Below, piece after piece: positions 1,454 through 55,999 of a stretch of 64,000 nucleotides of DNA. Numbering within the stretch: position 1 is the stretch's first letter; the number at the start of each line of letters is the position of its first letter. The position numbers and the translations under genes are program-made. The notes under the pieces were generated by a model. That model saw only the letters and a program-made list of their open reading frames with translations. It had not been told where the DNA came from and searched no databases. Source of the stretch: Cyanidioschyzon merolae (taxonomy: Eukaryota). The stretch lies in the NCBI GenBank assembly GCA_000091205.1, contig AP006499.2; one strand, given 5' to 3'.

Positions 1454-1970
1454 CGCTATCAGGCGCTGCACCGAGACTCGACCAAGCTCGACCGCGTACT
1501 TTCACCAAGGTACTGTCGAAACGTAGCGAGCTTGAGATTTCAACGTGACGGAAACACTTGACTTTGTATGCGTTTGCCAAAGTGTGCGTCCGTGTGCCTG
1601 CTGCGCGGAACCCACACGCTCAAGCTGATTCCCGAACTGCGGAAACGTGTTGAACGCAGTTCAAACCTTCCTTCGTTACCGTTTATACCTCAAGCTCGGT
1701 GACTTTCGTGCAAGTTAATTAGAGAACCCCACCAGAACCTCAGCTTGAAGTACTGAAAGATAACCAATCGAAAAACAACGCCGAAGACCCAGACGTCCTA
1801 TAACAAGTAACCAACGAACCAACAGAATAGTAAGCTCGGTATTTTCGAGGATTCAGAGACCGCCAGTTCCATCGGCGAGCACAGCTTTGTGTCAAAGCTG
1901 CGTTCGGGCGGCGGTGCAAGAAGCTCGGGTCCCGAAGCACTTTGTCCGGCGTTTAGCTCCGACTCTGCGG

Positions 1971-4271
1971 ATGCCGGTGGCGAAAAGGCGACGAGGCGGG
2001 AAAACTGCTGCAGTTGAGCCGGACACTCGCGACACACGCTCGGATGCAGTCGCAGACCGGAAACGCACTGCCGCTGAGGTACCTGCGTCGAAGCTTCCAG
2101 GAAAGATCACGGACTTTGGAAGCGTTCCTCTGTCGAGACCTCTCGCCCCACCACTGCTCTTCGAGCTAGCTGAAGAGCGTGCGGACGATCTTTGCCGACT
2201 TGTGCTGGTCTCCCACGAGGGACGCCCGGTGTCCAGCGTCGACGCCCTATCGGAGTCGGAGTGGCGGGGGTTTGCGACTCAGGCAGTGCTGGCTCGCGAA
2301 GCTTGCTTCGCTGCTATACAGGGCGTACACCAGGGTGAGGCTCGTTCAGAGGACACGATTAAAGGAAACCAACGCGCAGCAGCACGCGATGTCAGTGAAA
2401 CTGCGAGCGACGCTGAGGCGGAACCATCTCCAGAAACTGCTATCCAGACGTCCGTATCTATTGCGGTGAGCGAAATGGATGAAATGATCACTCTATTAGA
2501 TGCTGTAATTGGTGGGTTTCTGCAGACCTGCGCTGCAGAAAGGTCAGGCTCTACTCGAGTCGAAGGCGGGGCCTCTCCGGCAGCACCACCACCTATCCTG
2601 CGCCCGGTTCCTCGAGACCGCTTGACAAGCCTCAAAACGCCGGAGACATTGCATCTGCATTCCAAAGACATGGATACAGAACGAGATACAGCGATAGTAA
2701 GCGTACAACGAGGATCGAGCGATTCCATGGGCTGGGCTCCACTCTGGATGCGTCGTGTTCAAACACTACAGTCGATTGCGGCGTTTTTGCGCCATCAGCA
2801 TGAGGTACTGGTTGGGCAAGGGACCAAGAATCGTCGCTTTCGTGAAGATCTTGCAATGCTCTGTTACGGAGACACGACAAGTTGCTCTGTGAATCGTTTG
2901 CGCCCGGTTCTGCTCGATACCCGTCTCTTGAGCGATACGAGAACAACAACAACAACAGCAGCAGCAGCAATGAGTCCGAAAGCTGGTACGCAGCGAATAC
3001 GGATCGAAGCGCACCTCCATGATGACTGCTGGATACCGCTCTGGCCCTGCGAGCGACACGAGTCTGCACTCCATGGCCATATCTCCGTACACGCATCGGA
3101 TATCGCTTCCCGTCTGGACTGCACCTGCCCGGTGCTGTTGCAGTGTTTCCGTGGACCAGAATCCTCGACCTGGTATCCAGATCAAGAGCCATTACTGCCC
3201 TTACAAAACCCAGATCCGATGTCGTTCCGTTCCGTGCCTTCTGCGATGAATGCAAACTCGGAATTCGTCGGTGTGGCTGCAGTTCGCCGTCTTCTGTTCA
3301 GGGTACGCTATCAGCAGACAATGCGACGACTGTATGAGCGACTCATCCACCAGGCGCATGACTGGCTTCGGATGTCCTTGCAGAGGCGATACCCTGGATC
3401 GCCGTTCGCCCGATACGATGGCGTCTGCGATCTTCGCGACGTTGACGAACGAGGCTTCACTTTCTACGATGCGCTCTCAGAGCAGGCGCTGCTGCGCGTT
3501 GCACTTGAACAGAAAACTCCTGGGGTGCTCAGAAGCGAAACGCATAGCGCTTCGGTGCCGCCGCTCCTGCAAGTTGTTGATGATATCGTCGGGCAACACG
3601 GTGCTGATTTTCCTGTGTTATGGCAACTCCTGGGCAATGCGTTGCGCATCTGTCATGGAACACTAGCTGTGTACACCGCAAGTCAGACATTGGGGCTGCT
3701 CGTTGCGAGCCGTCGCGACGGGTCACTGCATCCTCACGATGCAGCTGCTTCACGTGCCGACGTTGCGCACTTTACATTGGAGGTACGCTGGCCACAAACC
3801 GCTGGTGATGCAGCCAGTGTATGTCGGCTTCACTTCGGGAGCGATGCAGTTTCTGGGTGGGCATCAACGGATGCCGCCTCCCATCCAGAAAAGCTCTCGG
3901 ATCCTTCCCAGTTCATTGCGTTCTTGATTCGCAGTGTAGAATCGACACTGCTACGTCGAGCGATCGATGCATGGCATCGCGCGCTGCGTACACAGGCCCT
4001 GGAGTACGAGGTAGCGCTCCTTGCGAGCGGCGTCGCTCGAGTGAAGGTATGGCCTTCGGGTGCTGCGGCCTCAAGCGATGTCGTGGAACCACAGCGGATC
4101 ACGATGCATGTGGAGGCGCTGCAGAGCCCGTCAGCCTTGCCCAAATGGACGGGGCATGTTCAATTCAGACTTTGTTTGAACAGTGAGGAATGCTTTGTCG
4201 GCGATGCTGGTGCGCTCTGGACCTATTTGGACGAGTCGCTCAATATCCAGCGCCTGTTGCCGAACCTGTGA
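1971..4271 (+). CDS. hypothetical protein, low-complexity/disordered, ~766 aa from first ATG
   Basis: The 2.4-kb uninterrupted ORF (track 1887..4271) is too long for chance even at this GC. The track start is TTG; the first ATG at 1971 gives MPVAKRRRGGK (basic N-terminus). It contains a (CAA/CAG)n run coding T/A at ~2940-2975. No recognisable domain. Confidence 0.45.
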   Translation: MPVAKRRRGGKTAAVEPDTRDTRSDAVADRKRTAAEVPASKLPGKITDFGSVPLSRPLAPPLLFELAEERADDLCRLVLVSHEGRPVSSVDALSESEWRGFATQAVLAREACFAAIQGVHQGEARSEDTIKGNQRAAARDVSETASDAEAEPSPETAIQTSVSIAVSEMDEMITLLDAVIGGFLQTCAAERSGSTRVEGGASPAAPPPILRPVPRDRLTSLKTPETLHLHSKDMDTERDTAIVSVQRGSSDSMGWAPLWMRRVQTLQSIAAFLRHQHEVLVGQGTKNRRFREDLAMLCYGDTTSCSVNRLRPVLLDTRLLSDTRTTTTTAAAAMSPKAGTQRIRIEAHLHDDCWIPLWPCERHESALHGHISVHASDIASRLDCTCPVLLQCFRGPESSTWYPDQEPLLPLQNPDPMSFRSVPSAMNANSEFVGVAAVRRLLFRVRYQQTMRRLYERLIHQAHDWLRMSLQRRYPGSPFARYDGVCDLRDVDERGFTFYDALSEQALLRVALEQKTPGVLRSETHSASVPPLLQVVDDIVGQHGADFPVLWQLLGNALRICHGTLAVYTASQTLGLLVASRRDGSLHPHDAAASRADVAHFTLEVRWPQTAGDAASVCRLHFGSDAVSGWASTDAASHPEKLSDPSQFIAFLIRSVESTLLRRAIDAWHRALRTQALEYEVALLASGVARVKVWPSGAAASSDVVEPQRITMHVEALQSPSALPKWTGHVQFRLCLNSEECFVGDAGALWTYLDESLNIQRLLPNL

Positions 4272-23315: not shown

Positions 23316-24722
23316 CAGGTGACGAATAAAGGTCTTGTCAAAAAAACTCGTCCGGAACCTCGACTGTTTCTGTTCCCGTCACGTCACGATACATCCCCTT
23401 CACCAAATGCATTAGTCCCAAAGAAGCCTCACGAACACTCGTGGAGTACGAGTCGACACGATTTCTGATGGCCTCTCGGAAATCTTCCTTGTACGGATCC
23501 TTGATATGTTTAAGAAGACAGGCTTTCACCACTATCTCGTCGTTGTGTCGTCTTTTGTGCAGCTTCTGACGTCGGGTCTCCCCGTTTCGCTCCTACGTCT
23601 TCTCCTGTTCCCCTGAGCTCGGCTCTGATTTTCGTTTTTTCCCAGCAGCCGGCGGCACTGGGCCTCCAAGATCCTTTACTTACATCTCCAAAATTTTTTT
23701 GAAAGAGCACGCTCTTTGAACGATTCTGCGATAAAGCGCGAAAAAACACTTGAGTAAACTAAACTGAGGGTTCAAAAACGATTCAATTGAGAAACTATGC
23801 CACGACTTCAACACAAATACATCTTGTACGGTAGAGCAAGAAGACAATGAGTAGAATCGCGTTTCCCTTCAACGGCGAGAAACCAATACTGTCTCATGCC
23901 TGCCAGGATGGAGGTGCACGTATCGACCGCGCTATATAGAACAATGAAGAGAGACTAACCACTAACTGGCAACGATATGAGAAGTTCGTTCCCCCTCTAT
24001 GATAAACGTTACAAGTGGAAGGCTTTCCATGTTGTCGAAGGTTTACGTTCTAGGTGGAAGGTCCCTCGAGCTGGACGAATCTGCCGAGCTTGCGCTCCGT
24101 GCGACTCTGAAATGGCGGCCACTGTAGTGAAATCTGTGCAACTCATCCGCAGCGCAGTTTACTCTAGGACTCGGAGCGAGTAGAATGCATCTGGGCGACG
24201 CCAATGTTGCAGTTCTCTCCTAGCGTGCCGCTTCGCGCTGCCGCAGGCAGTAGGTCTACCGGTCCAGTTTGCAAGCTCCCGGAATAATGATAAACCCTGA
24301 CCCTGTGGCGGGTCGACGACGACTGGAGCGGACGCCGTCAGTGGTATGGCACAGCTCGTCTTTCTTCGTGTTGTAAAAGCACAAGTAGTATAGGCGGTCT
24401 TGCGGGTGGAGCTATGCAGGCACTCGGTGCACGATAGAACAAACGAAACGACCAGTTTCTCCCAGAGAACGTATACATCATGGATCCTAAAGGTAGCACA
24501 TATCGTGAAGGAAGCTTCCCTGAATGCCAGTATCCATGGTCAACGTAAACATTCTTTCAATCCAACAGAAAAGTACATCGGGATACCTGTGTCCGCTGAG
24601 CGAGACGTCGTCCGCCCAGGGCGCTGCCCCCGCGGGAGATCCGTCGAGTGCACCAGATAGGCCGCTCTGGCGTGCGTTCGGTGACCTTAGCTTTTTAAGC
24701 GCAATATTCGTTGAAACTTATA

Positions 24723-26213
24723 ATGTGGGCCAGCGTTCTTCGGTTCTTACCAAAGCATAAGGGAAACTTAGGTCGTTGTATGTCCGTGAGAGCCAGCGTC
24801 TTGCGTTCTGAGCATACGGCTCCGTTTTGGGAAGCACCATTGAGCAGGGCGTTGCCGCTGTACCAGGAGGGTTTCCTGCCCCGAACGGCTTCTGTGAGCC
24901 AAGCCGAGCCGACGCGCACCGAAACTGCACCCGTGCGCTTTCAGATGGCGCCAAGTGGAGCGGGGGACTCGTTGGTTTTTTTGCATGAAACATCGTCGGT
25001 ACGTGGTGCTCTCGAAGAGATGGTGCACCGGAATACCGCCTTTGTTCTCGTTGTGGGCGACCCCTTTAACCGGTCATCGCCAAAGGCGGACGTTCCTGCG
25101 TCAACTTCGGATATTGTGCGCATCTCCAGCGAAGCTGAGGGTGATGATCAGCGCGTTGATACCGAGCATGCTGCCGTGATCGGGTTGTTCACAGAGCGCG
25201 ACCTCTTGCGCTGCCTGGCGGACGCCGTCGCGGAGCAGCGCACCGGCGAAGCTGCAGCGCTCTCATTCCGTCTGCGGAAGGCGATGAGTCCGCTTTACGA
25301 TCGGTTTGGGACGCTAAAAGTGTCATCAAATACCATATATGATGCTGTTATGGTCATGCGGGAACGGAACATTCAAACCATACCCATCATTCGCGAGGAG
25401 GAGCACGAAGAGGACTACATCTTGCCGGGGGGTCATCCAGCAGCGGGCGAGAGCGCTTCCAGCAGCTACACCCTGGCATTGCCACCTCGATCGTTTTGTG
25501 GCGTTCTGACAGCACGCGATGTGGCTCGCTTCTTCCTCGCCCAAGATGCTAGCGTCCAAGATGCAGTCTGTAGCCTGGAGACGTCGACTGACGCTGGCGT
25601 CAGAGCATCGCGATCGACACGTCCGATGCTTCTGCGTCATCTCTTGTCTTGGCGCCTGCGTCGACTCTTTGAAGGCGCTCGACCTTTAAGTGATACTTTC
25701 CTCGAAGAAGACATCGTCGTGTACGAATCCGAGCATTACAGGGTGGTTTCAGTCCCTCGCTCGGCATCAGTGCGGGACGCGATCGCGGTCATGGCACAGC
25801 ACGATGTTCGTACGCTTCTGATTAGTGAGGACGCTAGTTCCGGCTTCGATGCAGCCGGACCCTATCCCAGTATTTACGGTGTCATTACGTTGCGAGATCT
25901 CATGAGGCAGGTCTTCTATCCACGAAGAAATCCGCTGGCGCTCAGCATGCAGACTCTCTTTCGTGAGCGCTGGACAGCGGCAGGGGTATCGAGGCCGCAA
26001 CTCGCAGCCGAGGAGCGCAAGTACGGAATCTCACCTGATGATGAAGTGGCGCATGCGCTGCGCTTGGTCGGTGGTATGAACGAGCGGCACATCCCAGTGT
26101 ACGTCTACAATGACGCTGATCAGACGAGCAACTGCGTCGCGATGGTGAGCGTCAAGGAGATGCTGTCGGGTGTCCATGCGGCAGAGCAGCGGCGGCGCGG
26201 GCAACGGTACTAA
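24723..26213 (+). CDS. CBS-domain protein (tandem CBS pairs)
   Basis: CBS-like segments recur: VIGLFTERDLLRCL, CGVLTARDVARFF, YGVITLRDLMRQV, VAMVSVKEMLSGV. The track start is TTG; the first ATG is 24723, and alternative internal ATGs are possible. Confidence 0.55.
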   Translation: MWASVLRFLPKHKGNLGRCMSVRASVLRSEHTAPFWEAPLSRALPLYQEGFLPRTASVSQAEPTRTETAPVRFQMAPSGAGDSLVFLHETSSVRGALEEMVHRNTAFVLVVGDPFNRSSPKADVPASTSDIVRISSEAEGDDQRVDTEHAAVIGLFTERDLLRCLADAVAEQRTGEAAALSFRLRKAMSPLYDRFGTLKVSSNTIYDAVMVMRERNIQTIPIIREEEHEEDYILPGGHPAAGESASSSYTLALPPRSFCGVLTARDVARFFLAQDASVQDAVCSLETSTDAGVRASRSTRPMLLRHLLSWRLRRLFEGARPLSDTFLEEDIVVYESEHYRVVSVPRSASVRDAIAVMAQHDVRTLLISEDASSGFDAAGPYPSIYGVITLRDLMRQVFYPRRNPLALSMQTLFRERWTAAGVSRPQLAAEERKYGISPDDEVAHALRLVGGMNERHIPVYVYNDADQTSNCVAMVSVKEMLSGVHAAEQRRRGQRY

Positions 26214-27540: not shown

Positions 27541-30500
27541 TTACGCTCCAGGTGGATCCCCGATATGATGTGAGCGTTGTGGCGCCTCTGATGCAACGGA
27601 CATGCCGATCCCTGCTTTCGGGTTCGTTGTCGCTGCCGTTGAGTTCGTTGGGTAAGCACGGTCTCCGCTATCGCCAAATACGTCCGTGGGTTGCTGTGAC
27701 CCCGAACCCGAGACAAGCGGCACTCGTTCTGCGCGCGTCGTTGCAGGCATTGCCAGAACAGTGAGATGCTGGAGCTGTTGGCGCACCAGGGCCATTTCCT
27801 GCCGCAGTGCTTCAATATCGCGACGCAAAGTCCCTTGTTCCTGGCGGAGGGATGAGAGCTCTCCTCGCAAATGTTCCACAGGTTCATTGCCTGGCTTGAT
27901 CGGTCCATTGCCGGATGGTACTGCACCCATGGCTGGATGCGGCAACAAAGCGGGGCTATAACCAGAGGTACCTGCAGGCGGTCCGACACTGATGCCGCTG
28001 GCTGCCGCAGCGCCGCTTTCCATGCCGCTCGCTTGACTGTGCTCAACACGTGGTGAAACGTAGGAATGGAGCGGTCCGGTTCCGGAGCCACTATCATGTA
28101 TACTGGAAACACCGTGCGGAATACCAGGGTACAGAGCGGCACTGGATGCCGGCCCTGCTCCTATGGAGATATCCGCGGCTGAGGCAGCGAACTGCAGGTT
28201 TCCGGCCAGCAGGGCCGAAAGTGTGCGTTGCAGGCCTCGTGCGTGGTGCAGCAATGCCAGCAGGTCCTCCTCGGAGACATTCGCTAGTGGCAGATTTGTG
28301 GTGGCGCGTTGCGCTCGACCTGGAACAGTACCTGCTGCGGAGGCATCTGTGGATGGATCCTTCGGAGACGTCGACGACGATGCAGTGATGCGAGTATGCG
28401 GCTGCCAAGCGTTACAAGTGGCAGTACCCGGAACGCTGCCATATCCCCGTTGATTTGGATGATTGTTGTTCATCGACGGTTGCGTCGCCCAGCGCGACGG
28501 CGGCGGTGGCGGTGACTTGGGTTTCGGTGCACGCGGAGGAGAACGCGTCGCACTCTGTGGCTGCTGGAATACACCGTCCAAAGCAGCTAGCGAAACGTAC
28601 AGAGGATTATGCGGAGAAACATCCCCAGTCGACGCGCTAGATCCTGGTGGTTGCGCTGTCGTTGCGGCTGCTCCACTGGAAAGAGCGGCTCTGGCAGAAG
28701 CAGAAGTTGGCATCGCCTGATGCAGTGGAATATCGATAACCTCAAAACGCCCGTGACTCGAGCGTCGAGACGCCTCGCCCAGTGCAGAGCCACCAGATGG
28801 TACATGTGGGGTCGAGCTTCGGTTCGGATGCGACGTGCTGGCTTCATGGACTGCTGCAGATGATGATGCCGCAGCTGCAGCCGCAGTTACTGCCGCCTCA
28901 GAAGGTCGTGCATTCCCTGACTCAACGGAATGCAACAGTCGCCTCGTTGATTGCCCCTGAGCGTTCCCCGGGTATATGCCATCCCCCAGAGAAGTGATCG
29001 TGGTGGATCCTTCATCGGTCGTCATCGATGTGCCAGTTCGCATGCCCAGTTCAGGTGGCGCGGTATTCCGACTCCCAACAGATTGGTTATAGAACCGGGG
29101 ACGTACGCTGCTGGTGCTGCTGCTATCACTAGCACATGGGTCTGCGGAGACCGCTCCCGGCCTTGGACTCGCGCGTGCTCGCACGTCCTCCGTGAGCATC
29201 TCACGCGTGATAATGTCTTCATGGACAAGGCACGCTGTACTAGGCGAGGTGTGTGGGCGGGACGGCTCCGTATCCACCAGGAGGAAACGCCCAGCTCGTC
29301 GAGACGACCCTGTCTCCACTTTGACAAGATTTTCTGCTGCAGGAGCGGTTTCCTGAGAAAGCGCTGACTCCGTCTCTGCTGATGCGCGCGACGTACGCAC
29401 CGGCGCCGGTTCCACGACCGAGGATCCTAGTGACTGTATATGTTCGTTTTCTGAAACAACAGCGGCAAGATCCGTTACAGGCTGCAGCCTATCTGGGGCT
29501 GGTACTGCGATGCTTTCCGGAATCCGCTGCAGATCACGTTCACGTTTTGCCTCAATTAACTCAGGGCTGTCTGCAAAGTTCCAACCACTGATACCCATCA
29601 CATTTCGGGGATGCTCCGGCGAGCGTCGTCCAGTCTGCGATGCCTGCGATTCCATCGTGCTCGATGAGGCGCTGCTGGCAGGCTGTTGCGACCAGGGCTC
29701 CTGCCCGGGATGCTTCGCCCCAGCGCCCGCTGACGCCACGTGACCCCGTTGCAGGGAGATACGCTCCTTCTCGGAGAGTGGATTCAACTCCAGCGGCGGC
29801 ATTCGGGAGAGCATGTTGGCAGCCCAGCCATTTTCCAATGGAAGCTCCGTCTGCATAAATGGATGTTTCAAGAGCTCACTCGCAGAAGGCCTCTTGTGTG
29901 GATCCTTGTGCAGGCAGAGTTCGACGAAAGCCCGAAACTCGCTGCTAAACCGCTCCGGATGCTCCAGTGTCGGTGGCGGACCCTGTAAGGTTAACTGAAG
30001 CACTTTCATCGGTGCGAAGCGCTCATAGGGCGCACATCCCTGGGCTAATTCGATAGCTGTGATGCCGAACGACCAAATATCTGCCTTGTAGTCGTAACCA
30101 GAGACCTGCTCCATTACTTCCGGCGCCATCCAGCACGGCGTTCCGACAAAAGTCTGCCGCAAGCGACGCGAGATGCCGCTCTCCAGCATGAGCCCCAGAT
30201 ACGTATAGTCTGTGAGCAGGATTCGGGCATCTGGTGTCAGTAAAATGTTATCTGCTTTGATATTGCGGTGGATCTGACGATTCCGGTGAAAGTATTCGAG
30301 GCCCCGCAGCGTACCGTGCAGTATGTACCGAATCACGGCCTCGTCAGGGAAGCCTTCGGGATACAAGTGGCGCAAAATCCGCCCGACAGGAGTCCCTGCG
30401 ACAAAAGGCATCACAATCCAGAGGTTATGCCCCACGGAAAAGGATGTTCGATAGGGCACAACGTTTTCGTGGGAGCTTAAAGACATGACGCGAATCTCCT

Positions 30501-30708
30501 TGATTAGATCATCGAGGGAGAGCGGCAAGCCTTCCAAGTTGATTACTTTGATCGCTACAGCTTCATTGCCGGCCGCAGGACAGATCGCCCGGTACACTGC
30601 TGAGTTTTCCCCGTGACCCAGCTCTTCGAGGAACTCGTACCCGTCAGGCGTCACCGGGTAGCGGCGCGGCGAAGCGGCAGTCACCACATCAACTCCTTTA
30701 TCCGCCAT
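27541..30708 (-). CDS. STE20-family (OSR1/SPAK/STRAD-like) kinase-fold protein with degenerate catalytic motifs and long disordered C-terminal extension with terminal coiled coil
   Basis: The N-terminal kinase domain has LGHGENSAVY, AVAIKVINL, HRNIKADNILL (HRD to HRN), LLTDYTYLG (DFG to DYT), FVGTPCWMAPEVM and DIWSFGITAIELAQG. The C-terminal ~750 aa are S/A/P-rich, ending in ...LRGELSSLRQEQGTLRRDIEALRQEMALVRQQLQHL. The track start 30855 is GTG; the first ATG (MADKGVDVV) is at 30708. Confidence 0.8.
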   Translation of the reverse strand: MADKGVDVVTAASPRRYPVTPDGYEFLEELGHGENSAVYRAICPAAGNEAVAIKVINLEGLPLSLDDLIKEIRVMSLSSHENVVPYRTSFSVGHNLWIVMPFVAGTPVGRILRHLYPEGFPDEAVIRYILHGTLRGLEYFHRNRQIHRNIKADNILLTPDARILLTDYTYLGLMLESGISRRLRQTFVGTPCWMAPEVMEQVSGYDYKADIWSFGITAIELAQGCAPYERFAPMKVLQLTLQGPPPTLEHPERFSSEFRAFVELCLHKDPHKRPSASELLKHPFMQTELPLENGWAANMLSRMPPLELNPLSEKERISLQRGHVASAGAGAKHPGQEPWSQQPASSASSSTMESQASQTGRRSPEHPRNVMGISGWNFADSPELIEAKRERDLQRIPESIAVPAPDRLQPVTDLAAVVSENEHIQSLGSSVVEPAPVRTSRASAETESALSQETAPAAENLVKVETGSSRRAGRFLLVDTEPSRPHTSPSTACLVHEDIITREMLTEDVRARASPRPGAVSADPCASDSSSTSSVRPRFYNQSVGSRNTAPPELGMRTGTSMTTDEGSTTITSLGDGIYPGNAQGQSTRRLLHSVESGNARPSEAAVTAAAAAASSSAAVHEASTSHPNRSSTPHVPSGGSALGEASRRSSHGRFEVIDIPLHQAMPTSASARAALSSGAAATTAQPPGSSASTGDVSPHNPLYVSLAALDGVFQQPQSATRSPPRAPKPKSPPPPPSRWATQPSMNNNHPNQRGYGSVPGTATCNAWQPHTRITASSSTSPKDPSTDASAAGTVPGRAQRATTNLPLANVSEEDLLALLHHARGLQRTLSALLAGNLQFAASAADISIGAGPASSAALYPGIPHGVSSIHDSGSGTGPLHSYVSPRVEHSQASGMESGAAAASGISVGPPAGTSGYSPALLPHPAMGAVPSGNGPIKPGNEPVEHLRGELSSLRQEQGTLRRDIEALRQEMALVRQQLQHLTVLAMPATTRAERVPLVSGSGSQQPTDVFGDSGDRAYPTNSTAATTNPKAGIGMSVASEAPQRSHHIGDPPGA

Positions 30709-32130: not shown

Positions 32131-33978
32131 CTGGTTATCTTGCGGTGTTCTCCTGTGTCCGCAACGCCGGCTTCACGGGGCTACTTCCTTGTGGTGCCTG
32201 AACGCTTACCTCATTGCCCGCTAGATGCGCTTGACGGATGCAGAGACGCTCGTCCATATCCGAATCCGTTTCTGCGCCCGGGGATGCAGCGCCCGATCAG
32301 ACGTGCTTTTCCAGGTTATCCACTTGGTGCGTAGTTGGTCCCCTGTATGCGTATGCGAACGTTGCGTCATCCGACAGAGGATTTGCGGATCGCGATATTG
32401 TCCATGATGAAACCAGTACCGCGTCCGAAATCGGAGCCCGACGATCAGCTCGTCACATTCCCATCGGTATACGCCCCGTCGTGCACAGCAGTGATGCTCT
32501 CGCTATCGCAAGCAGTCGCTGCGATGACTAGATTCCGAGTGAAAGATGCTATTCCAAGTCAACAGAAGAGAACAGAGACGATCGTGCATATCCCGTGAGA
32601 GGTATTGTGCTGGTGTCGGATGCCGTTTCGTCTAAGGTCACATGGAGAGGAGGATTTGTATTCCGCAGTTGTCGATTGCTTGACGTGACACGTTCATTGA
32701 ACTTTAAACAAGAACTTGTGAACAAGTGCTCTAGCGACGACATTGAGCTGTTTTCTTCATCGATCCAGTGGCACGAATAGCGGCGCCTGCGACTTGCCTT
32801 GGTTGATCAAAAACGTGCAGCATGCGCAAACCATACATGCAGCACGTAAGGAATTCAGAAGATCAAAGGCTTCTATCTATGAATTTGTTGATGATATCGA
32901 TTATTTTACGAAGCCTTTTTCGAAGGTGTCTCGATTCGCCCTGATGTTGAGTACGTAACGAGTCCATGCGGCAACGAGTCGACGCAGTCACTCCACAGAA
33001 ACAGCCGAGAATCTTAAAAGGACCTTTGAATCCGTTGTCTCTCTCTTTGCTACAGTTCGATTCTTAAACCTGAAAATCTACAATCATTTTGGAAAGAATC
33101 GCCAGGCTAAAGCAGCACGAGCAGATACGCATCCACCCGACGCCTTTGGTACTTGGGCGTTTGGACGCGCGTGCGCTGCGCTTCAGCAGGCGAGGGACCA
33201 GATCCGAGAGCACCAAGAGCGTTACGGTGCTAGGTGGCCCTGGCTGGTGCTCTTTAAAGTGACGCAGGTGTTCAGGGGGTTCATAGGCTCGTGCGAAACA
33301 CTCGAGTCCATAGGCGCGAGCAGCCGTGCTCCACTTGGTTGTGGACGACTGGTTGAACTTGGGCACCTGTGCCTTGGCTTTGCGCGGCAGAGAGGCTCGA
33401 TCTTTACGTCGACCCTGCACACGGAACCTCACATCGCTTGGAGCTGGGAGAGGCACGCGAAATCCTGTTTCGTGTAGCTGAGCGACTTTTTCGTCTTCTT
33501 AAGCGGTGTATGAACTTTTGGAAAACCTCGGCACCGGCGTAGGGGTACGACCTGGAAAGCGCGGCGTTATTTTGGAGGTGGAGGCGAAGGGCATCGAGCG
33601 GAGACGGCCCCGACTGAGGAGGCAACCGTGCACGCCCGGGCTTCTGTGTATCGGTGCAGCTGCTGCTTAGACGCCTTCTTGCTGACGGCTGATCTGCCTG
33701 TGGCACGGAGCTCGAGCTTCAGTGCGTAACACAGGCAGCGTCGGGTGCTCTCGTTGGCACGACTTGTCTGCGGACGCACGTAGTGCGTATTTTCTTGCAT
33801 CTCTCGGGACGAACCCGTATCTGTATTGCAGAACTGCAAAAGCTTGCTCCTGGAAACAGCGCTGTCTGTACTGCAGCAACAGATCACTCGGGTGGAGGCG
33901 TCTTTAGGTAGAGATCCAGCACTACTAGTGCGCACGCTGGGTGCACCGGAACCTTCTGCATCCTTCGAGCTGCACTCC

Positions 33979-35877
33979 ATGCCGCTGGCGACCCATTCAG
34001 TTCACTTTCTCCGTACAACAACACCAACTGCGATGTTGCAAGACAAAGCGTGCCCAGGATGGACCATTCATATGCAGACGAATGCCCGAATACTCTTGCG
34101 TCACGACTGGCTCCGTGAGGATAGAACGCTGCAGGCTGCCTGGTACAGCGTGCTGGACCCTACAAAACTGAGCAAGCCGGGAGCATCTCTCGCTGGTTGT
34201 GCAAATGGTTTTAGAGCTCCTATCTCGCCCCGCTGGTCATTCGGAACTGGCAGTCAAAAGGAGTCGAGCGATCAGGAGAAGCTGCAGCCGCGAGACTCAG
34301 ATCCACTGGCACGCCTGCAAACGCCTCAGATGAGCGATGGCGTTGAGGCTGCAGCGCCAGGTGATTCTCCCGAGGAATCGAACAATACCGAATACACGCC
34401 GACACTGGCGCGCAAAGGAGCGAGCGTTGCCTCACTTACTCGCCGAAGAAGACATTCGGAGCTAGAGAAGGCGTCTACCAGGTGCACATCGCCCGAACGT
34501 TCGGTGTCGAAGCATCAGCTTTCCTGTGCTGCTTCGCCAGAGCGAGAGCATCCTAGCTGCCAGGACGCAATCCGAACTCGAAACGCTTCCGGAGACGAAC
34601 CGTCTGCACCAGCACGTGATTTAGGTTGCCTGTCGCTGCTCGTTGTAGGTTGCAAATCGCCGTCAAATATGAGTCGGCAGGAGAAACAAGCGCTTTCTGA
34701 AGCGCGAACGCTCTGGGAGATGCACGGCGGTCGTTGGCTGGACCCGTGCGACCTCTCGCAAGTCTTCCAACTGCTGGAGACGTTTATCGAGACCACAGGT
34801 ACCGCAAGTGCCGCCACGGATGATGAGACTTCAAACGCTTGCCCGAGTGCCGGCGAGGAGTCATCACCGATTTCGAAGCGCAGACGCTACGAACCGAAGC
34901 CCGGCGTTCGCGAACCTGCCGCAGGAAAAGCGTCACCGGAGCCAGCGCTGCTGATTGCAGCCCTGCATCATAGCGTTGCTGCATGTTTGCAATCAAAGCA
35001 GTGCTGTCCAGTAGACGGCCTGGCTGCACAACAGTTATACGCTATTGCGTCAATCGCGTGGCAACGCGGCTGGGCCCTCCTGATCGATCTGCAAAACACG
35101 AAGGACGACAAGGATATCCGTAACGCCGGAGCTGCCGCGTTGAGGGTGTGGATTCGTTCTGTTTTGAGCGAATCTGCATCTAGAATGGAACAATCCAAAT
35201 CAGAGGCTTCCCTTCAGGACGGCAACGAAAGCCTTTGGGAGCGAATTCGTAATCACGCGTTGGAGAATACAACCCCGAGCAAACTCGGTGTTTTTTCCAA
35301 TTTTGCTTTTTCGTTCATAAGCGAGAAGGATCATGTCGGTGTATCTGCTCCAGCTGCGAAACGGAGGAAACACGTCCGCCAGCACAGCTCAGAGACAACG
35401 GAACGTTGGTCAGCGGGAATGCAGCCCGGCGATGAGCATTGGCATCATGACGTGCAGCTGCTGATCCGTCTCGCGGGAGGCATCTGCGTCCCCGAGCAGA
35501 GCGACGCGGCTTGTATCCGAGAGCGCGCTTCCATTTCAGTAACAAGGCAGAAACGAACAAGGACACAGAACCCGGCGTCGACCGAGTCGCCTATGCATGC
35601 TTTCAAAGTATGCCGAGCGCTTGACCTCGCGAGAATGGAGGAGAACGCAAACTTCCCGGACTCTTCGCTGCCGCTGATTGACTGGGACCGGCTGCTGTCG
35701 GCAGTTTGTACTGGGACAGGGCACGCTCTGACGTCGTCGACAACCGCCTCGTGCCATGTGGAGGCGCCGAAATCCCCCGAACGGCAAGCATCAGCGACTC
35801 CAAAACGAGAGCAGAGCAAGCGGCGTGGAACCCGTTCGCCATCAAGACAATCCCAGAGATCAAAACGGCGATCCTGA
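33979..35877 (+). CDS. hypothetical protein, low-complexity (S/A/P/R-rich), ~632 aa from first ATG
   Basis: A 2-kb uninterrupted ORF (track 33826..35877, TTG start); the first ATG is 33979 (MPLATHS). No recognisable domain. The C-terminal tail is basic (KREQSKRRGTRSPSRQSQRSKRRS). Confidence 0.4.
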   Translation: MPLATHSVHFLRTTTPTAMLQDKACPGWTIHMQTNARILLRHDWLREDRTLQAAWYSVLDPTKLSKPGASLAGCANGFRAPISPRWSFGTGSQKESSDQEKLQPRDSDPLARLQTPQMSDGVEAAAPGDSPEESNNTEYTPTLARKGASVASLTRRRRHSELEKASTRCTSPERSVSKHQLSCAASPEREHPSCQDAIRTRNASGDEPSAPARDLGCLSLLVVGCKSPSNMSRQEKQALSEARTLWEMHGGRWLDPCDLSQVFQLLETFIETTGTASAATDDETSNACPSAGEESSPISKRRRYEPKPGVREPAAGKASPEPALLIAALHHSVAACLQSKQCCPVDGLAAQQLYAIASIAWQRGWALLIDLQNTKDDKDIRNAGAAALRVWIRSVLSESASRMEQSKSEASLQDGNESLWERIRNHALENTTPSKLGVFSNFAFSFISEKDHVGVSAPAAKRRKHVRQHSSETTERWSAGMQPGDEHWHHDVQLLIRLAGGICVPEQSDAACIRERASISVTRQKRTRTQNPASTESPMHAFKVCRALDLARMEENANFPDSSLPLIDWDRLLSAVCTGTGHALTSSTTASCHVEAPKSPERQASATPKREQSKRRGTRSPSRQSQRSKRRS

Positions 35878-43773: not shown

Positions 43774-45477
43774 TCAGAGCTCCCGAAAAGACTCCCCGAA
43801 GCTTTCTTGCGCCTCCATCATAACGGTACTGTCGTCGCCGGTGTCGGTGTCGGAGGTATTTCCTGTGTTAGGAATCCGACTTTGCAACGGGGCACTCGCA
43901 TCGTCATCATCAACGTCGATCATGTTTGGAATACTGGCATTTCGAAGCAATTGCGGATGAACGATTTGAGAGAGCGGACCCGTGGCAGTCACAGCGGCTG
44001 CGGCAACGTGTGCTCGTTGGTCATCTGCTCCGGCCGCTTTGGTATGCTCTGCGACACACGGCGTATGATAGGTGGATTCTACGGCATTACCGACGATCGT
44101 CGGTTTCAGTCGGATTGCAGGCGCATCTTCGGGCCTGTCTCGAGCCATGCCCTCGACCTGATTCCACATTGTCGCCAGTTTTTCCTTGGGCATGCTCGCA
44201 TACGCTCGCTCGTACGGTATTCCGTCCCGCTGTTGACTCGTTAATGCCGCGCGGAAGCGATCCGCCTCACTGGGGATCTCGTATCCTCCCGCATGGCCTC
44301 GTAGCATCGTCTCGCGTAAATCTGGATGGTAGTGCAGGATTTCCTCCCAGAAAAGCTGCCGCATCTGTGATGCAGTGAGCTGCTCGCGTTCGAAGAAGAA
44401 TTCCTCGGGCGGCAATGGGCTACCAGATACAATGGATTCCGGAGTATAGAGGCCTCTAAAATAAACATGCTGGAGTGCTTCCAGGGCTGTTAGGCGCTTG
44501 TTCGGATCAAACTGAAGCAGGTTTCGAAGCAGGTCCAATGCATCCGGGGGCGCGTCTGGGAACACTGTATCCAAGGGTTTCGGCGGTCGCGGCGGCAGCG
44601 AGCGCAGATGTTGTCTTACGCGCTGATTCCGCACCTTCGCAATCGACTCCTCATCCGGGGTACCGAGCAGCTTCACAATCAGCTCCAATTGCTCAAAGCT
44701 ATTCATACCGGGGAACAGGGGTTTTCCGCGATTCAAAAGTTCGGCGAAAATGCATCCCGCAGACCAGATATCGATCGCCGCTGAGTACTTTGACGAATAA
44801 CTCATGATCAGCTCTGGTGCACGATACCATCGCGTCGCCACATAATCCGTCCAGCACGCCATATCTTCTTGTTGGTTGTAGGCTAGTCGGGCGAGCCCAA
44901 AGTCGATCACCCTTAAATCACACAACTCATTAATCATGATGTTGTTCGGTTTTATATCGCGATGAAGCACGTTGCAGCTGTGCATGTAATGAAGCGCTTG
45001 CAATAGTTGATACATGAGCCATCGGATATGATCCTGCGATAACGGAATGGGTGCCCTCAGGACTCGATTCAAGTCCGCTGGCATCAACTCGAAAACCACG
45101 AACACGTCATCAAACGAGTCACGCTCCGAAGGTGCAAGAATCTCGCGGATGCTAATGATGTTTTCGTGGGAACGCAGGAGGCGCAGGAACCGAAGCTCCC
45201 GCAGGATGCGTACAGCTTCGGGAATCTCGTCGAAAACGCGGCGAATTCGTTTCACAGCCACTTTTTCCCCTGTCTGTATATCAATCGCTGAGCACACAAC
45301 CCCATAAGCACCTTCTCCGATGATTGACACGAACCTGTAACGGTTACCAATTAGGCGTGCATCAAAGAAAGCGCTGCGCGCTTCAGCCGGGCGGTGTGGC
45401 TGTGGCGCCTGACGCCTATCCCCTACGTTGTAACCATCCTGAACTCCTTGGGCATGGCTGTTGCGCAAGTCGCTCAT
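43774..45477 (-). CDS. mitogen-activated protein kinase (TDY activation-loop type) with extended C-terminal region
   Basis: IGEGAYGVVCSAID..KVAVKRI, HRDIKPNNIMI, DFGLAR, ACWTDYVATRWYRAPE (TDY dual-phosphorylation motif), DIWSAGCIFAELL. There is a true ATG at 45477..45475. Confidence 0.85.
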   Translation of the reverse strand: MSDLRNSHAQGVQDGYNVGDRRQAPQPHRPAEARSAFFDARLIGNRYRFVSIIGEGAYGVVCSAIDIQTGEKVAVKRIRRVFDEIPEAVRILRELRFLRLLRSHENIISIREILAPSERDSFDDVFVVFELMPADLNRVLRAPIPLSQDHIRWLMYQLLQALHYMHSCNVLHRDIKPNNIMINELCDLRVIDFGLARLAYNQQEDMACWTDYVATRWYRAPELIMSYSSKYSAAIDIWSAGCIFAELLNRGKPLFPGMNSFEQLELIVKLLGTPDEESIAKVRNQRVRQHLRSLPPRPPKPLDTVFPDAPPDALDLLRNLLQFDPNKRLTALEALQHVYFRGLYTPESIVSGSPLPPEEFFFEREQLTASQMRQLFWEEILHYHPDLRETMLRGHAGGYEIPSEADRFRAALTSQQRDGIPYERAYASMPKEKLATMWNQVEGMARDRPEDAPAIRLKPTIVGNAVESTYHTPCVAEHTKAAGADDQRAHVAAAAVTATGPLSQIVHPQLLRNASIPNMIDVDDDDASAPLQSRIPNTGNTSDTDTGDDSTVMMEAQESFGESFREL

Positions 45478-54619: not shown

Positions 54620-55999
54620 TCAAAGAATATTCACATACTCGCGAAGCATCGCGGTCAAACTTGGATGACGCAACTTTCGCAGAGCTCGTGACTCAATCAG
54701 GCGAATCGTGTGAACTGGTAACTTGAACCTTGCACTGAGTTCCTCCGCGGAGTGCGGACGTTCGTCATCCGAAATGCCGTACCTCAAACGAAGAATCTCG
54801 CGTTCCTGGAACGGAAGGGTGCGCAACACGCACTCGACATCTTCACGCATACAGCTCCGCTCCAGAGCCTCCTCGGGTGTCTCCTCTGTGGCCTCTATGA
54901 CGCTGCCAATGGAGAGCGGCGCCTCTCCCTGCTGTGCCTTGTAGAGACTCTGGGCCTCAGTGCTTGGTGGCCCCTCTAGACTAAGGGTCTGCGTTTCCCA
55001 GGCGTGTTGCGTGATCTTCTTCAGACGTTTCAGTGTCATATTGCATGCCTCAGCGACTTCCTCGTCCGTTGGTGGTCTCTTCAAAACGTGTTGCAAGCGG
55101 GCCCTCGTCCGATAAATCTGTCGCAATGATTCAGTCACATGATTGGGTAAGCGGATCGTGCGTGAGTGCTCAGACACACACCGCTGGATTGCCTGCCTGA
55201 TCCACCAAGTCGCGTAGGTTGAGAACTTGAAACCTTTGGAGGGATCGAACTTCTCCGCCGCGCGGATGAGGCCAATGGCTCCCTCCTGAATGAGATCGCC
55301 GAGAAAAATGTTATGCTGCCTCTGAAGTCGCACTCGTTCATGAGCGGGCACCTCTATTCCGCTCTTCGTCTTGGACCGCCAGGCAGAGCGCACTACTGCC
55401 CGAGACTTGTAACGATTGGCTATTGCTAGAACTAAACGCAAGTTTGCTGCGACAAGACGTTCACGCGCCCTCCGTCCACGTTCCACCCGCTGCTGGATTT
55501 CCTCTTCGGGCGCATCAACTGCAGCCGCCCACTCTGCGTTTGTAGGCTCACGCCCCAGGGTGTTCCGGAGCTCGTCACGTTGTTTCAACAGCGCGCAGTA
55601 GTCCTGCGTGGCTCGCGACAAACGCGCAACCTCCTCGTCAGAGATGCGGTCCAACTTACAGATCTCTCGGACATAGGCCGTGGCTGCACAGGTCGTCGTG
55701 TGATTCGTTCGACGTCGAGGCTTCTTCGCCGCGCTCGTCGGCTCCTCTAGCTCGTCAACTTCGACCTTCTCAAGATCTTCTTCTTGAGCAAGCACCTTGT
55801 TCTCGTCCTTGATAACAGGAACATTTGGCACCGAAACCAACGTCGACAACGAGCGCAGCGACTCCGGCAAGGACCCCAGCGGGGTAACCTTCATGTGCGG
55901 GGTCATCACTGCGTGGCCCCGCGCAACCCGCGAAACGGGACAGACCCGCGCAGCAACCTGCCGCTTAAGACTCGAGACGCGTGCCCAACTGAGAAACAT
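54620..55999 (-). CDS. sigma-70-family RNA polymerase sigma factor (nuclear-encoded plastid SIG) with N-terminal transit-like extension
   Basis: Region 2 ([40 protein letters not shown]), region 3, and region 4 ([50 protein letters not shown]). There is a true ATG at 55999; the first ~60 aa are R/S/V-rich. Confidence 0.85.

Follow-up and report, generated by a model that had tools for sequence, protein, structure and literature searches.

A GCK-VI (OSR1/BLUS1-type) STE20 protein of Cyanidioschyzon merolae is a probable pseudokinase

Introduction

The GCK-VI family of STE20 kinases comprises OSR1 (OXSR1), SPAK (STK39) and Fray in animals and the 'MAP4K clade III', including BLUS1, in plants. 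In this work, we analysed a 64,000-nucleotide stretch of DNA from Cyanidioschyzon merolae (assembly GCA_000091205.1, contig AP006499.2), called the window hereafter, and in it a gene for a 1055-residue protein of this family in which the catalytic aspartate is replaced by asparagine. The protein is probably a pseudokinase that serves as a non-catalytic signalling scaffold, as judged from its sequence.

Several relatives have been described to which it can be compared. According to a eukaryotic kinome preprint, OSR1, SPAK (STLK3), STRADα/β (STLK5/6) and seven Arabidopsis genes including BLUS1 form a single clade, OG099, that dates back to the last eukaryotic common ancestor (bioRxiv 10.1101/2020.01.27.920793). 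In BLUS1, Ser-348 is the phototropin site that relieves autoinhibition, and it lies in the plant consensus RRISGWNF (PMC8254492; PMC8415026). An engineered BLUS1 variant, D157N, does not phosphorylate MBP in vitro and does not signal in planta (PMC8254492). Arabidopsis MAP4K9 (AT1G23700), a member of the same clade, has neither HRD nor DFG (PMC8415026). As for STRAD, its WEF motif binds MO25, as does the WIF motif of MST3, and OSR1 and SPAK have a related WEW motif (PMC3725419). The same kinome preprint reports that LKB1 has been kept in red algae and lost from all other Archaeplastida (bioRxiv 10.1101/2020.01.27.920793).

Results

The catalytic base is replaced in an otherwise intact kinase domain

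The gene is an open reading frame on the minus strand that starts with an ATG at 30708, ends with a stop codon at 27541-27543 and runs without interruption for 1055 codons; a GTG-initiated extension to 30855 is a mechanical possibility only. Its product is 100% identical over all 1055 residues to BAM82101.1 / XP_005538137.1 of C. merolae 10D, which identifies the window as nuclear DNA of this species. GenBank labels BAM82101.1 a 'Ste20/SPS1-like serine/threonine kinase'. The same protein, identical, is also present in many metagenome and Logan assemblies. The features discussed below are collected in Table 1.

In phmmer alignments to OSR1 (2vwi) and SPAK (5d9h), IHRNIKADNILL of the C. merolae protein aligns on IHRDVKAGNILL, which places N149 at the position of the catalytic base. 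In the same alignments LLTDYTY falls on QIADFGV, and the DFG motif reads D167-Y168-T169. An earlier note on this DNA had predicted an OSR1-like STE20 kinase domain whose fold is intact apart from a missing catalytic base, and the registry of these alignments confirms that description; with OSR1, SPAK and STRAD as references, the Asn sits at the catalytic-loop position and no registry error was found. The same note was right to describe a change from DFG to DYT, but its statement that the motif reads TDY is one residue out of register, the Mg-binding Asp being kept.

The remaining motifs are those of a kinase. The glycine loop (GHGENSAV), the VAIK lysine K54, the alphaC glutamate E71, K151 and N154 of the catalytic loop, the Mg-binding D167, Thr186, APE and DIWSFG are all present. 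Thr186 lies in RQTFVGTPCWMAPE, a segment in the same register as in OSR1, and is homologous to the T-loop phosphorylation site of that kinase; the segment has the Thr of the pattern R-x-T-F-V-G-T-P-C-W-M-A-P-E. The AlphaFold2 (AF2) model gives predicted local distance difference test (pLDDT) values of 80-97 for the kinase domain. Pseudokinases are generically defined by the absence of at least one of the VAIK Lys, HRD Asp and DFG Asp, and the C. merolae protein falls within this definition through the change of HRD Asp to Asn; the pseudokinase that the earlier note predicted is thus supported at the level of sequence.

Residue 153 (30250-30252), at position HRD+4, is Asp in the Cyanidiaceae (KADN), Ala in Galdieria (KAAN) and other red algae, and Gly in OSR1. 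Asp153 arose in the lineage that also went from DYG to DYT.

The protein belongs to the GCK-VI family and is not a STRAD orthologue

Of the solved structures in the PDB, OSR1 and SPAK match best (273-277 bits, E ~1e-81), and MST3/4, MST1/2 and PAK score at most 195 bits, with MST3 at ~192. STRADα is the most distant comparator, with a BLASTP score of 142 bits and 32% identity over an alignment with long gaps. When the AF2 model was compared with the PDB by Foldseek, SPAK and OSR1 came first and the MST kinases next, with STRAD outside the top 50.

Kinase domains were also compared in a neighbour-joining tree rooted on MST3 (285 columns, 300 bootstraps). It placed the C. merolae protein in a red-algal Fray clade (bootstrap 95) within the OSR1/BLUS1 group, and the clade that includes OSR1 had a bootstrap of 100 relative to MST3. 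STRADα formed a long branch outside the red-algal clade, in a position that is itself unsupported (24%). The STRADα sequence used is an exact match to PDB entries 2wtk, 3gni and 8vsu, and MST3 was likewise verified against a PDB chain. The C. merolae protein is therefore an orthologue of GCK-VI STE20 kinases, in one clade with animal OSR1/SPAK/Fray and plant 'MAP4K clade III' including BLUS1. It does not have the HRD Asp of the family (N149), and this replacement makes it a degenerate member rather than a non-member.

Neither sequence, nor phylogeny, nor fold groups the protein with STRAD. The earlier note had called the motif pattern characteristic of STRAD-type pseudokinases. However, STRADα has VTVRR, with Arg for the VAIK Lys, HRS for HRD, His for the loop Asn, GLR for DFG and a degenerate glycine loop, and of these losses the C. 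merolae protein has that of the HRD Asp only. As the two are separate in the tree but belong to one clade, OG099, STRAD and the C. merolae protein are independent degenerate offshoots of one ancient kinase. The C. merolae protein is not a STRAD orthologue, and catalysis was lost independently within the same ancient clade.

The asparagine is shared by the class, and the kinase domain is under strong constraint

Conservation was assessed in three Cyanidiaceae, namely C. merolae, Cyanidiococcus yangmingshanensis (KAK4530127.1) and a third species (NCBI and metagenome contigs), and in three Galdieria sequences. HRN is invariant in all six. The two other Cyanidiaceae orthologues, 62-63% identical overall to the C. 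merolae protein, have exactly the same HRN and DYT, encoded in the three species by AAT/AAT/AAT at position 149 and by ACG/ACC/ACC at position 169; either Thr codon is two changes away from any Gly codon. The three Galdieria sequences combine HRN with DYG. Among the matches listed, HRD goes together with DYG in the other red algae and with either DFG or DYG in plants. Since DYG occurs in Galdieria and in other red algae, it is the ancestral red-algal form, and therefore only the change from Gly to Thr is new in DYT. The replacement of Asp by Asn is common to all sampled Cyanidiophyceae, and that of Gly by Thr is found in the Cyanidiaceae only. In an exhaustive HMMER search, HRN was confined to the Cyanidiophyceae among the best 150 representatives of 50%-identity clusters, and about 140 of these have HRD with DFG, DYG or DLG.

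In the three Cyanidiaceae, 90% of the kinase-domain columns are invariant, as against 6-40% in the linkers. The proportion of non-synonymous differences (pN) is 0.03-0.05 in the kinase domain, where synonymous sites are saturated (pS 0.75-0.83), and 0.20-0.32 in the tail, with dN/dS of about 0.15-0.18 where it could be computed. K54, E71, K151, N154, D167, Thr186 and APE are all invariant. The kinase domain is thus strongly constrained although the catalytic base is absent, and a decaying gene is ruled out.

Among the best 120 matches, all of at least 288 bits, the Cyanidiophyceae are represented by no further GCK-VI protein, and the C. merolae protein and its orthologues appear to be the only members of the family in this class.

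A further case is P0079 (GCA_016292395.1, contig JADWZK010175890.1), a red-algal Fray homologue of 1391 residues that clusters with those of Chondrus and Gracilariopsis; it combines HRN with DYC and has an altered T-loop segment (RETLVGAP). Here the catalytic Asp was lost independently within the GCK-VI family.

The tail has the architecture of plant and red-algal family members

The tail, residues 286-1055, comprises 770 residues, of which Ser, Thr, Ala, Pro and Gly make up 52.5%, compared with 30.5% in the kinase domain. AF2 assigns a pLDDT below 50 to 661 residues, nearly all of them in the tail, and predicts a single helix near the C-terminus, so that the disordered tail and terminal coiled coil announced by the earlier note are both borne out.

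Several motifs are embedded in this disorder. After the kinase domain, a Ser followed by W-x-aromatic occurs in GISGWNF (residues 372-378); all of 45 aligned homologues have W376, and at least 90% have F378. Two GRFxV-type motifs follow, RRAGRFLLVD and RRSSHGRFEVIDI, and R654 and F655 of the second are at least 90% conserved family-wide. Such (K/R)GRFxV motifs are found in the tails of nearly all red-algal and plant GCK-VI homologues. Further on come a conserved island, LYVSLAALDGVFQQPQ, that leads into the proline-rich SPPRAPKPKSPPPPPSRW, a conserved predicted helix, VSEEDLLALLHHARGLQRTLSALLA, and the heptad-repeat helix. The a and d positions of the latter (L947, L951, L954, L961, I965, L968, M972, V975, L979 and L982) are conserved in orthologues, and the zipper consensus L-x6-L-x6-L-x3-N-x2-L is family-wide, including the plant homologues (LxxELQ...N zipper). 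The C. merolae protein thus has both KGRFxV-type motifs and a C-terminal leucine zipper, the two marks of the Archaeplastida subgroup. Because ISGWNF, GRFxV and the zipper all occur across the family, we regard the architecture as that of Archaeplastida GCK-VI proteins, lengthened by linkers.

The CCT/PF2 domain (PF12202) was not detected in the C. merolae protein, for which Pfam gives Pkinase only. Nor did it occur in plant and red-algal homologues among the matches listed, where it was present only in nematode OSR1. Plant WNKs do carry PF12202, as seen in a search seeded with the Chondrus WNK domain; in that search, in which plant and fungal WNKs crowded the matches, a single 90%-identical sequence was the only red-algal WNK seen. 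The (K/R)GRFxV motifs fit RFx[V/I], the consensus to which CCT/PF2 domains bind in the WNK-OSR1 pathway of animals. The presence of GRFxV on Fray-type kinases and of PF12202 on WNKs suggests a reversed docking polarity, in which the CCT-like domain of a WNK might bind the motif of the kinase. We found no open-access paper that ties the GRFxV of plant or red-algal GCK-VI kinases to the CCT-like domain of WNKs.

C. merolae has LKB1

The earlier note had reasoned that a STRAD-like scaffold would imply an LKB1-MO25 module, and a genome check for LKB1 was positive. C. merolae 10D encodes BAM83288.1, a protein of 561 residues annotated as 'serine/threonine kinase 11' whose best solved relative is human STK11/LKB1 (282 bits, vs 181 bits for CaMKK2). 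It was reached through a metagenome scan with Cyanidiococcus STK11, which returned a 69%-identical gene whose 90%-identity cluster holds BAM83288.1. With the LKB1 domain of Galdieria as the seed, a search gave STK11 orthologues across red algae, including Cyanidiococcus. A metagenomic STK11, P0190/P0273, was rejected as the C. merolae protein; it is only 48% identical to that of Cyanidiococcus. As red algae that keep HRD also have LKB1, the presence of LKB1 is not tied to the pseudokinase state.

As for MO25, of the ten residues with which MST3 contacts it, six are identical in the C. merolae protein and two are conservatively hydrophobic, as in OSR1. The WxF-type motif of the protein, WNF (376-378), is internal and common to the whole family. 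We found no paper that names both Cyanidioschyzon and MO25, and the MO25 gene itself was not searched for.

Genomic surroundings

The neighbours in the window are ordinary nuclear genes, for MBOAT, the complex I 30-kDa subunit, inositol monophosphatase, a CBS-domain protein, Sec63/DnaJ, a MAPK, adenylosuccinate lyase and a sigma-70-type factor. Next to the kinase gene on its downstream side, and convergent with it, is the gene for the CBS-domain protein (24711-26213, plus strand, 500 residues; Pfam CBS, E 6e-16). Its assignment as an AMPK gamma subunit is unsupported, no solved-structure relative being found at E 1e-5. A second protein kinase gene (43774-45477, minus strand) codes for a MAP kinase, with Arabidopsis MPK6 and human ERK5 as the nearest solved structures (~320-329 bits). 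The sigma-70-type factor (54620-55999, minus strand) has regions 2, 3 and 4 and is presumably a nuclear-encoded plastid sigma factor. Two long open reading frames, 1887-4271 (plus strand, 794 residues) and 33826-35877 (plus strand, 683 residues), have no Pfam match at E 0.01.

Table 1. Features of the C. merolae GCK-VI gene and protein, with positions in the window
Feature	Residues	Position	Strand	Basis or remarks
Coding sequence, complete	1-1055 and stop	27541..30708	-	BAM82101.1 / XP_005538137.1, C. merolae 10D
Protein kinase domain, GCK-VI / Fray / OSR1-SPAK type	24-285	29854..30639	-	Pfam Pkinase, E 2.8e-49
VAIK lysine, kept	K54	30547..30549	-	Alignment; ATP-anchoring pair with E71 (30496-30498)
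Catalytic loop HRNIKADN	147-154	30247..30270	-	Alignment; K151 and N154 kept
Asn149 codon AAT at the catalytic-base position (HRD to HRN)	149	30262..30264	-	Codon and alignment
DYT for DFG, Asp kept	167-169	30202..30210	-	Alignment and codons
End of activation segment, RQTFVGTPCWMAPE	184-197	30118..30159	-	Alignment to OSR1; Thr186, P+1 loop, APE
GISGWNFAD	372-380	29569..29595	-	Ser374 homologous to BLUS1 Ser-348 in RRISGWNF; WNF is a WxF-type motif
First GRFxV-type motif, RRAGRFLLVD	470-479 (GRFLLV 473-478)	29272..29301	-	Alignments
Second GRFxV motif, RRSSHGRFEVIDI	648-660 (HGRFEVIDI 652-660, GRFEV 653-657)	28729..28767	-	Fits RFx[V/I]
Conserved island LYVSLAALDGVFQQPQ, then proline-rich SPPRAPKPKSPPPPPSRW	703-740	28489..28602	-	87% invariant in three Cyanidiaceae
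Predicted helix VSEEDLLALLHHARGLQRTLSALLA, conserved	811-835	28204..28278	-	AF2 helix 813-835, pLDDT 64-71; 87% invariant
C-terminal heptad-repeat helix (leucine zipper)	942-985	27754..27885	-	AF2 single helix, pLDDT 77-90

Discussion

The change of Asp to Asn in HRD is the textbook kinase-dead mutation. In the family to which the C. merolae protein belongs, the same substitution was engineered as D157N in BLUS1, and as it abolishes MBP phosphorylation in vitro, the natural variant is likely to be inactive as well. In BLUS1 orthologues, the Ser of SGWNF comes 196 residues after the HRD Asp, which is compatible with the 191 residues between D157 and S348 of the Arabidopsis protein.

We lean, if only slightly, towards a protein that binds nucleotide, is regulated through Thr186 and Ser374, dimerises through its zipper and recruits partners, and that would act allosterically rather than by phosphotransfer. 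All the residues needed for an active-like closed conformation and for ATP-Mg binding are kept under strong purifying selection. With nucleotide bound, phosphate transfer would be very poor or nil, and signalling would proceed through conformation and docking. Upstream kinases may phosphorylate Thr186 and Ser374. MO25 could dock at the alphaC/beta4 surface and the WNF motif, the proline-rich island and both GRFxV motifs might recruit partners, and the C-terminal zipper would provide for dimerisation.

A number of points weigh against this model. All other catalytic and substrate-binding residues are kept, including the P+1 loop GTPCWMAPE, as in an active enzyme. Other HRN-type proteins, HER3 among them, have been reported to have weak residual activity. 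MO25 is a putative component in C. merolae. AF2 confidence is low at the ISGWNF and GRFxV segments, so that docking through them is a function we purely infer. Finally, the neighbour-joining tree put Galdieria with other red algae (bootstrap 93) and not with the Cyanidiaceae; because of this split, the view that HRN arose once is based on the accepted species tree and not on the gene tree.

One alternative is that the protein is still an active kinase, with low turnover or an atypical mechanism, and that 'pseudokinase' is a mis-prediction. We consider this unlikely. Just one canonical catalytic residue is changed, and K54, E71, K151, N154, D167, the P+1 loop and APE have remained invariant across a very deep divergence. 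The Asp at HRD+4 of the Cyanidiaceae, D153, lies next to the active site, and atypically active pseudokinases exist, Arabidopsis ILK1 being an example (PMC9403797). Nevertheless, the same substitution kills the activity of BLUS1 (PMC8254492), and Galdieria has HRN without D153 (KAAN), leaving no compensating residue evident that all HRN proteins of the class would share. Moreover, the change of Gly to Thr takes the DFG motif of the Cyanidiaceae one step further from that of active kinases.

It is tempting to speculate about a functional analogue of STRAD, which together with MO25 would bind LKB1/STK11 in a pseudosubstrate-like manner and activate it allosterically, as a convergent module. STRAD and OSR1-type kinases do share the ancestral clade OG099. 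LKB1, which the kinome preprint describes as kept in red algae unlike in green plants, has orthologues in Galdieria, Cyanidiococcus and C. merolae (BAM83288.1). The WxF motif and most MO25-contact residues are present, and the ATP site, which STRAD needs to activate LKB1 (PMC2686265), is kept. However, the protein has no kinship to STRAD beyond the shared clade and shows none of the further losses that are the hallmarks of STRAD. LKB1 also occurs in red algae whose orthologue has kept HRD, and the two traits are thus uncorrelated. GCK-III/VI kinases in general have the WxF motif and the MO25 surface, which are not specific to STRAD. In addition, WNF is followed by some 680 more residues instead of being C-terminal, regulation of the OSR1/BLUS1 kind is suggested by the presence of both Thr186 and Ser374, and MO25 is putative in C. 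merolae. We therefore find a STRAD-like function quite improbable. The same low credence applies to the evolutionary scenario that would go with it, in which the sole GCK-VI kinase of the Cyanidiophyceae would have turned into a nucleotide-binding pseudokinase and, with MO25, into an allosteric activator of LKB1/STK11, so that a STRAD-like activator would have originated a second time, independently and by convergence, from one ancestral kinase clade.

That the Asn stems from faulty sequencing or assembly, or that the gene is a decaying pseudogene, is already refuted: AAT is one transition away from GAT, but it is found in three species, the identical protein occurs in independent assemblies, which excludes the error at the Asn codon that the earlier note had allowed for, and 1055 codons are intact, with the low pN and saturated synonymous sites reported above for the kinase domain.

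If the C. merolae protein is indeed a pseudokinase, it would add to a repeated loss of catalysis in the OSR1/STRAD clade, in STRAD in animals, in MAP4K9 in Arabidopsis, in the florideophyte-like P0079 and, class-wide, in the Cyanidiophyceae. Here, what appears to be the sole family member is still strongly constrained after losing the catalytic base alone, and the protein may thus offer a clean natural example of a kinase fold that works without phosphotransfer. The GenBank name 'serine/threonine kinase' probably overstates its activity. The gene itself was already known from GenBank as a kinase, predicted pseudokinases are common, and we found no paper that treats Cyanidioschyzon and pseudokinases in connection with the BAM82101.1 gene. 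The case is of moderate interest on account of the class-wide loss of a single residue, its recurrence in the OSR1/STRAD clade and the co-occurrence with LKB1. C. merolae is genetically tractable and amenable to gene targeting. It also has a very small genome in which LKB1 is present, and whether an OSR1-type pseudokinase plays the role of STRAD is directly testable there.

Comparison with known systems

Human OSR1 and SPAK and Drosophila Fray are the closest in both sequence and fold, the kinase domains being about 50% identical (277 bits). The T-loop and P+1 segment of OSR1 and SPAK, TFVGTPCWMAPEVMEQ, is identical in the C. merolae protein, the Ser and W-x-aromatic follow the kinase domain in both, and the MO25-contact surface is largely kept. 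The C. merolae protein differs by Asn for the catalytic Asp, by DYT for DFG and by the absence of a detectable CCT/PF2 domain, in place of which it has a mostly disordered 770-residue tail that ends in a zipper and contains two RFxV-like motifs of its own.

BLUS1/MAP4K10 and the other plant MAP4K clade III kinases (TOT3/MAP4K4), which are among the closest homologues outside red algae in the matches listed, resemble it along the whole length, with the kinase domain, (R)ISGWNF, a disordered tail, KGRFxV and the LxxELQ...N zipper. The plant members keep HRD and are active, however, and it is the engineered and inactive BLUS1 D157N that is equivalent to the C. merolae protein. In addition, the tail is longer in C. 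merolae and has two GRFxV copies, and the upstream kinase of BLUS1 is phototropin.

STRADα/β (STLK5/6) share with it the clade OG099, a missing catalytic base, a WxF motif beyond the kinase domain and an LKB1 in the same genome. Unlike the C. merolae protein, STRAD is also devoid of the VAIK Lys, the loop Asn, the DFG Asp and the T-loop Thr, and its glycine loop is degenerate. The WEF of STRAD is at the extreme C-terminus (PMC2686265), whereas the WNF of C. merolae is internal.

MAP4K9 and P0079 are further independent degenerations in the same clade, but they are separate events in other lineages, and MAP4K9 is much more degenerate than the C. merolae protein and has no disordered tail. As for HER3/ErbB3, the change from HRD to HRN is its sole canonical loss, ATP binding is kept and the protein acts as an allosteric partner. 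It belongs to an unrelated group, the receptor tyrosine kinases, and the likeness to the C. merolae protein is one of mechanism only.

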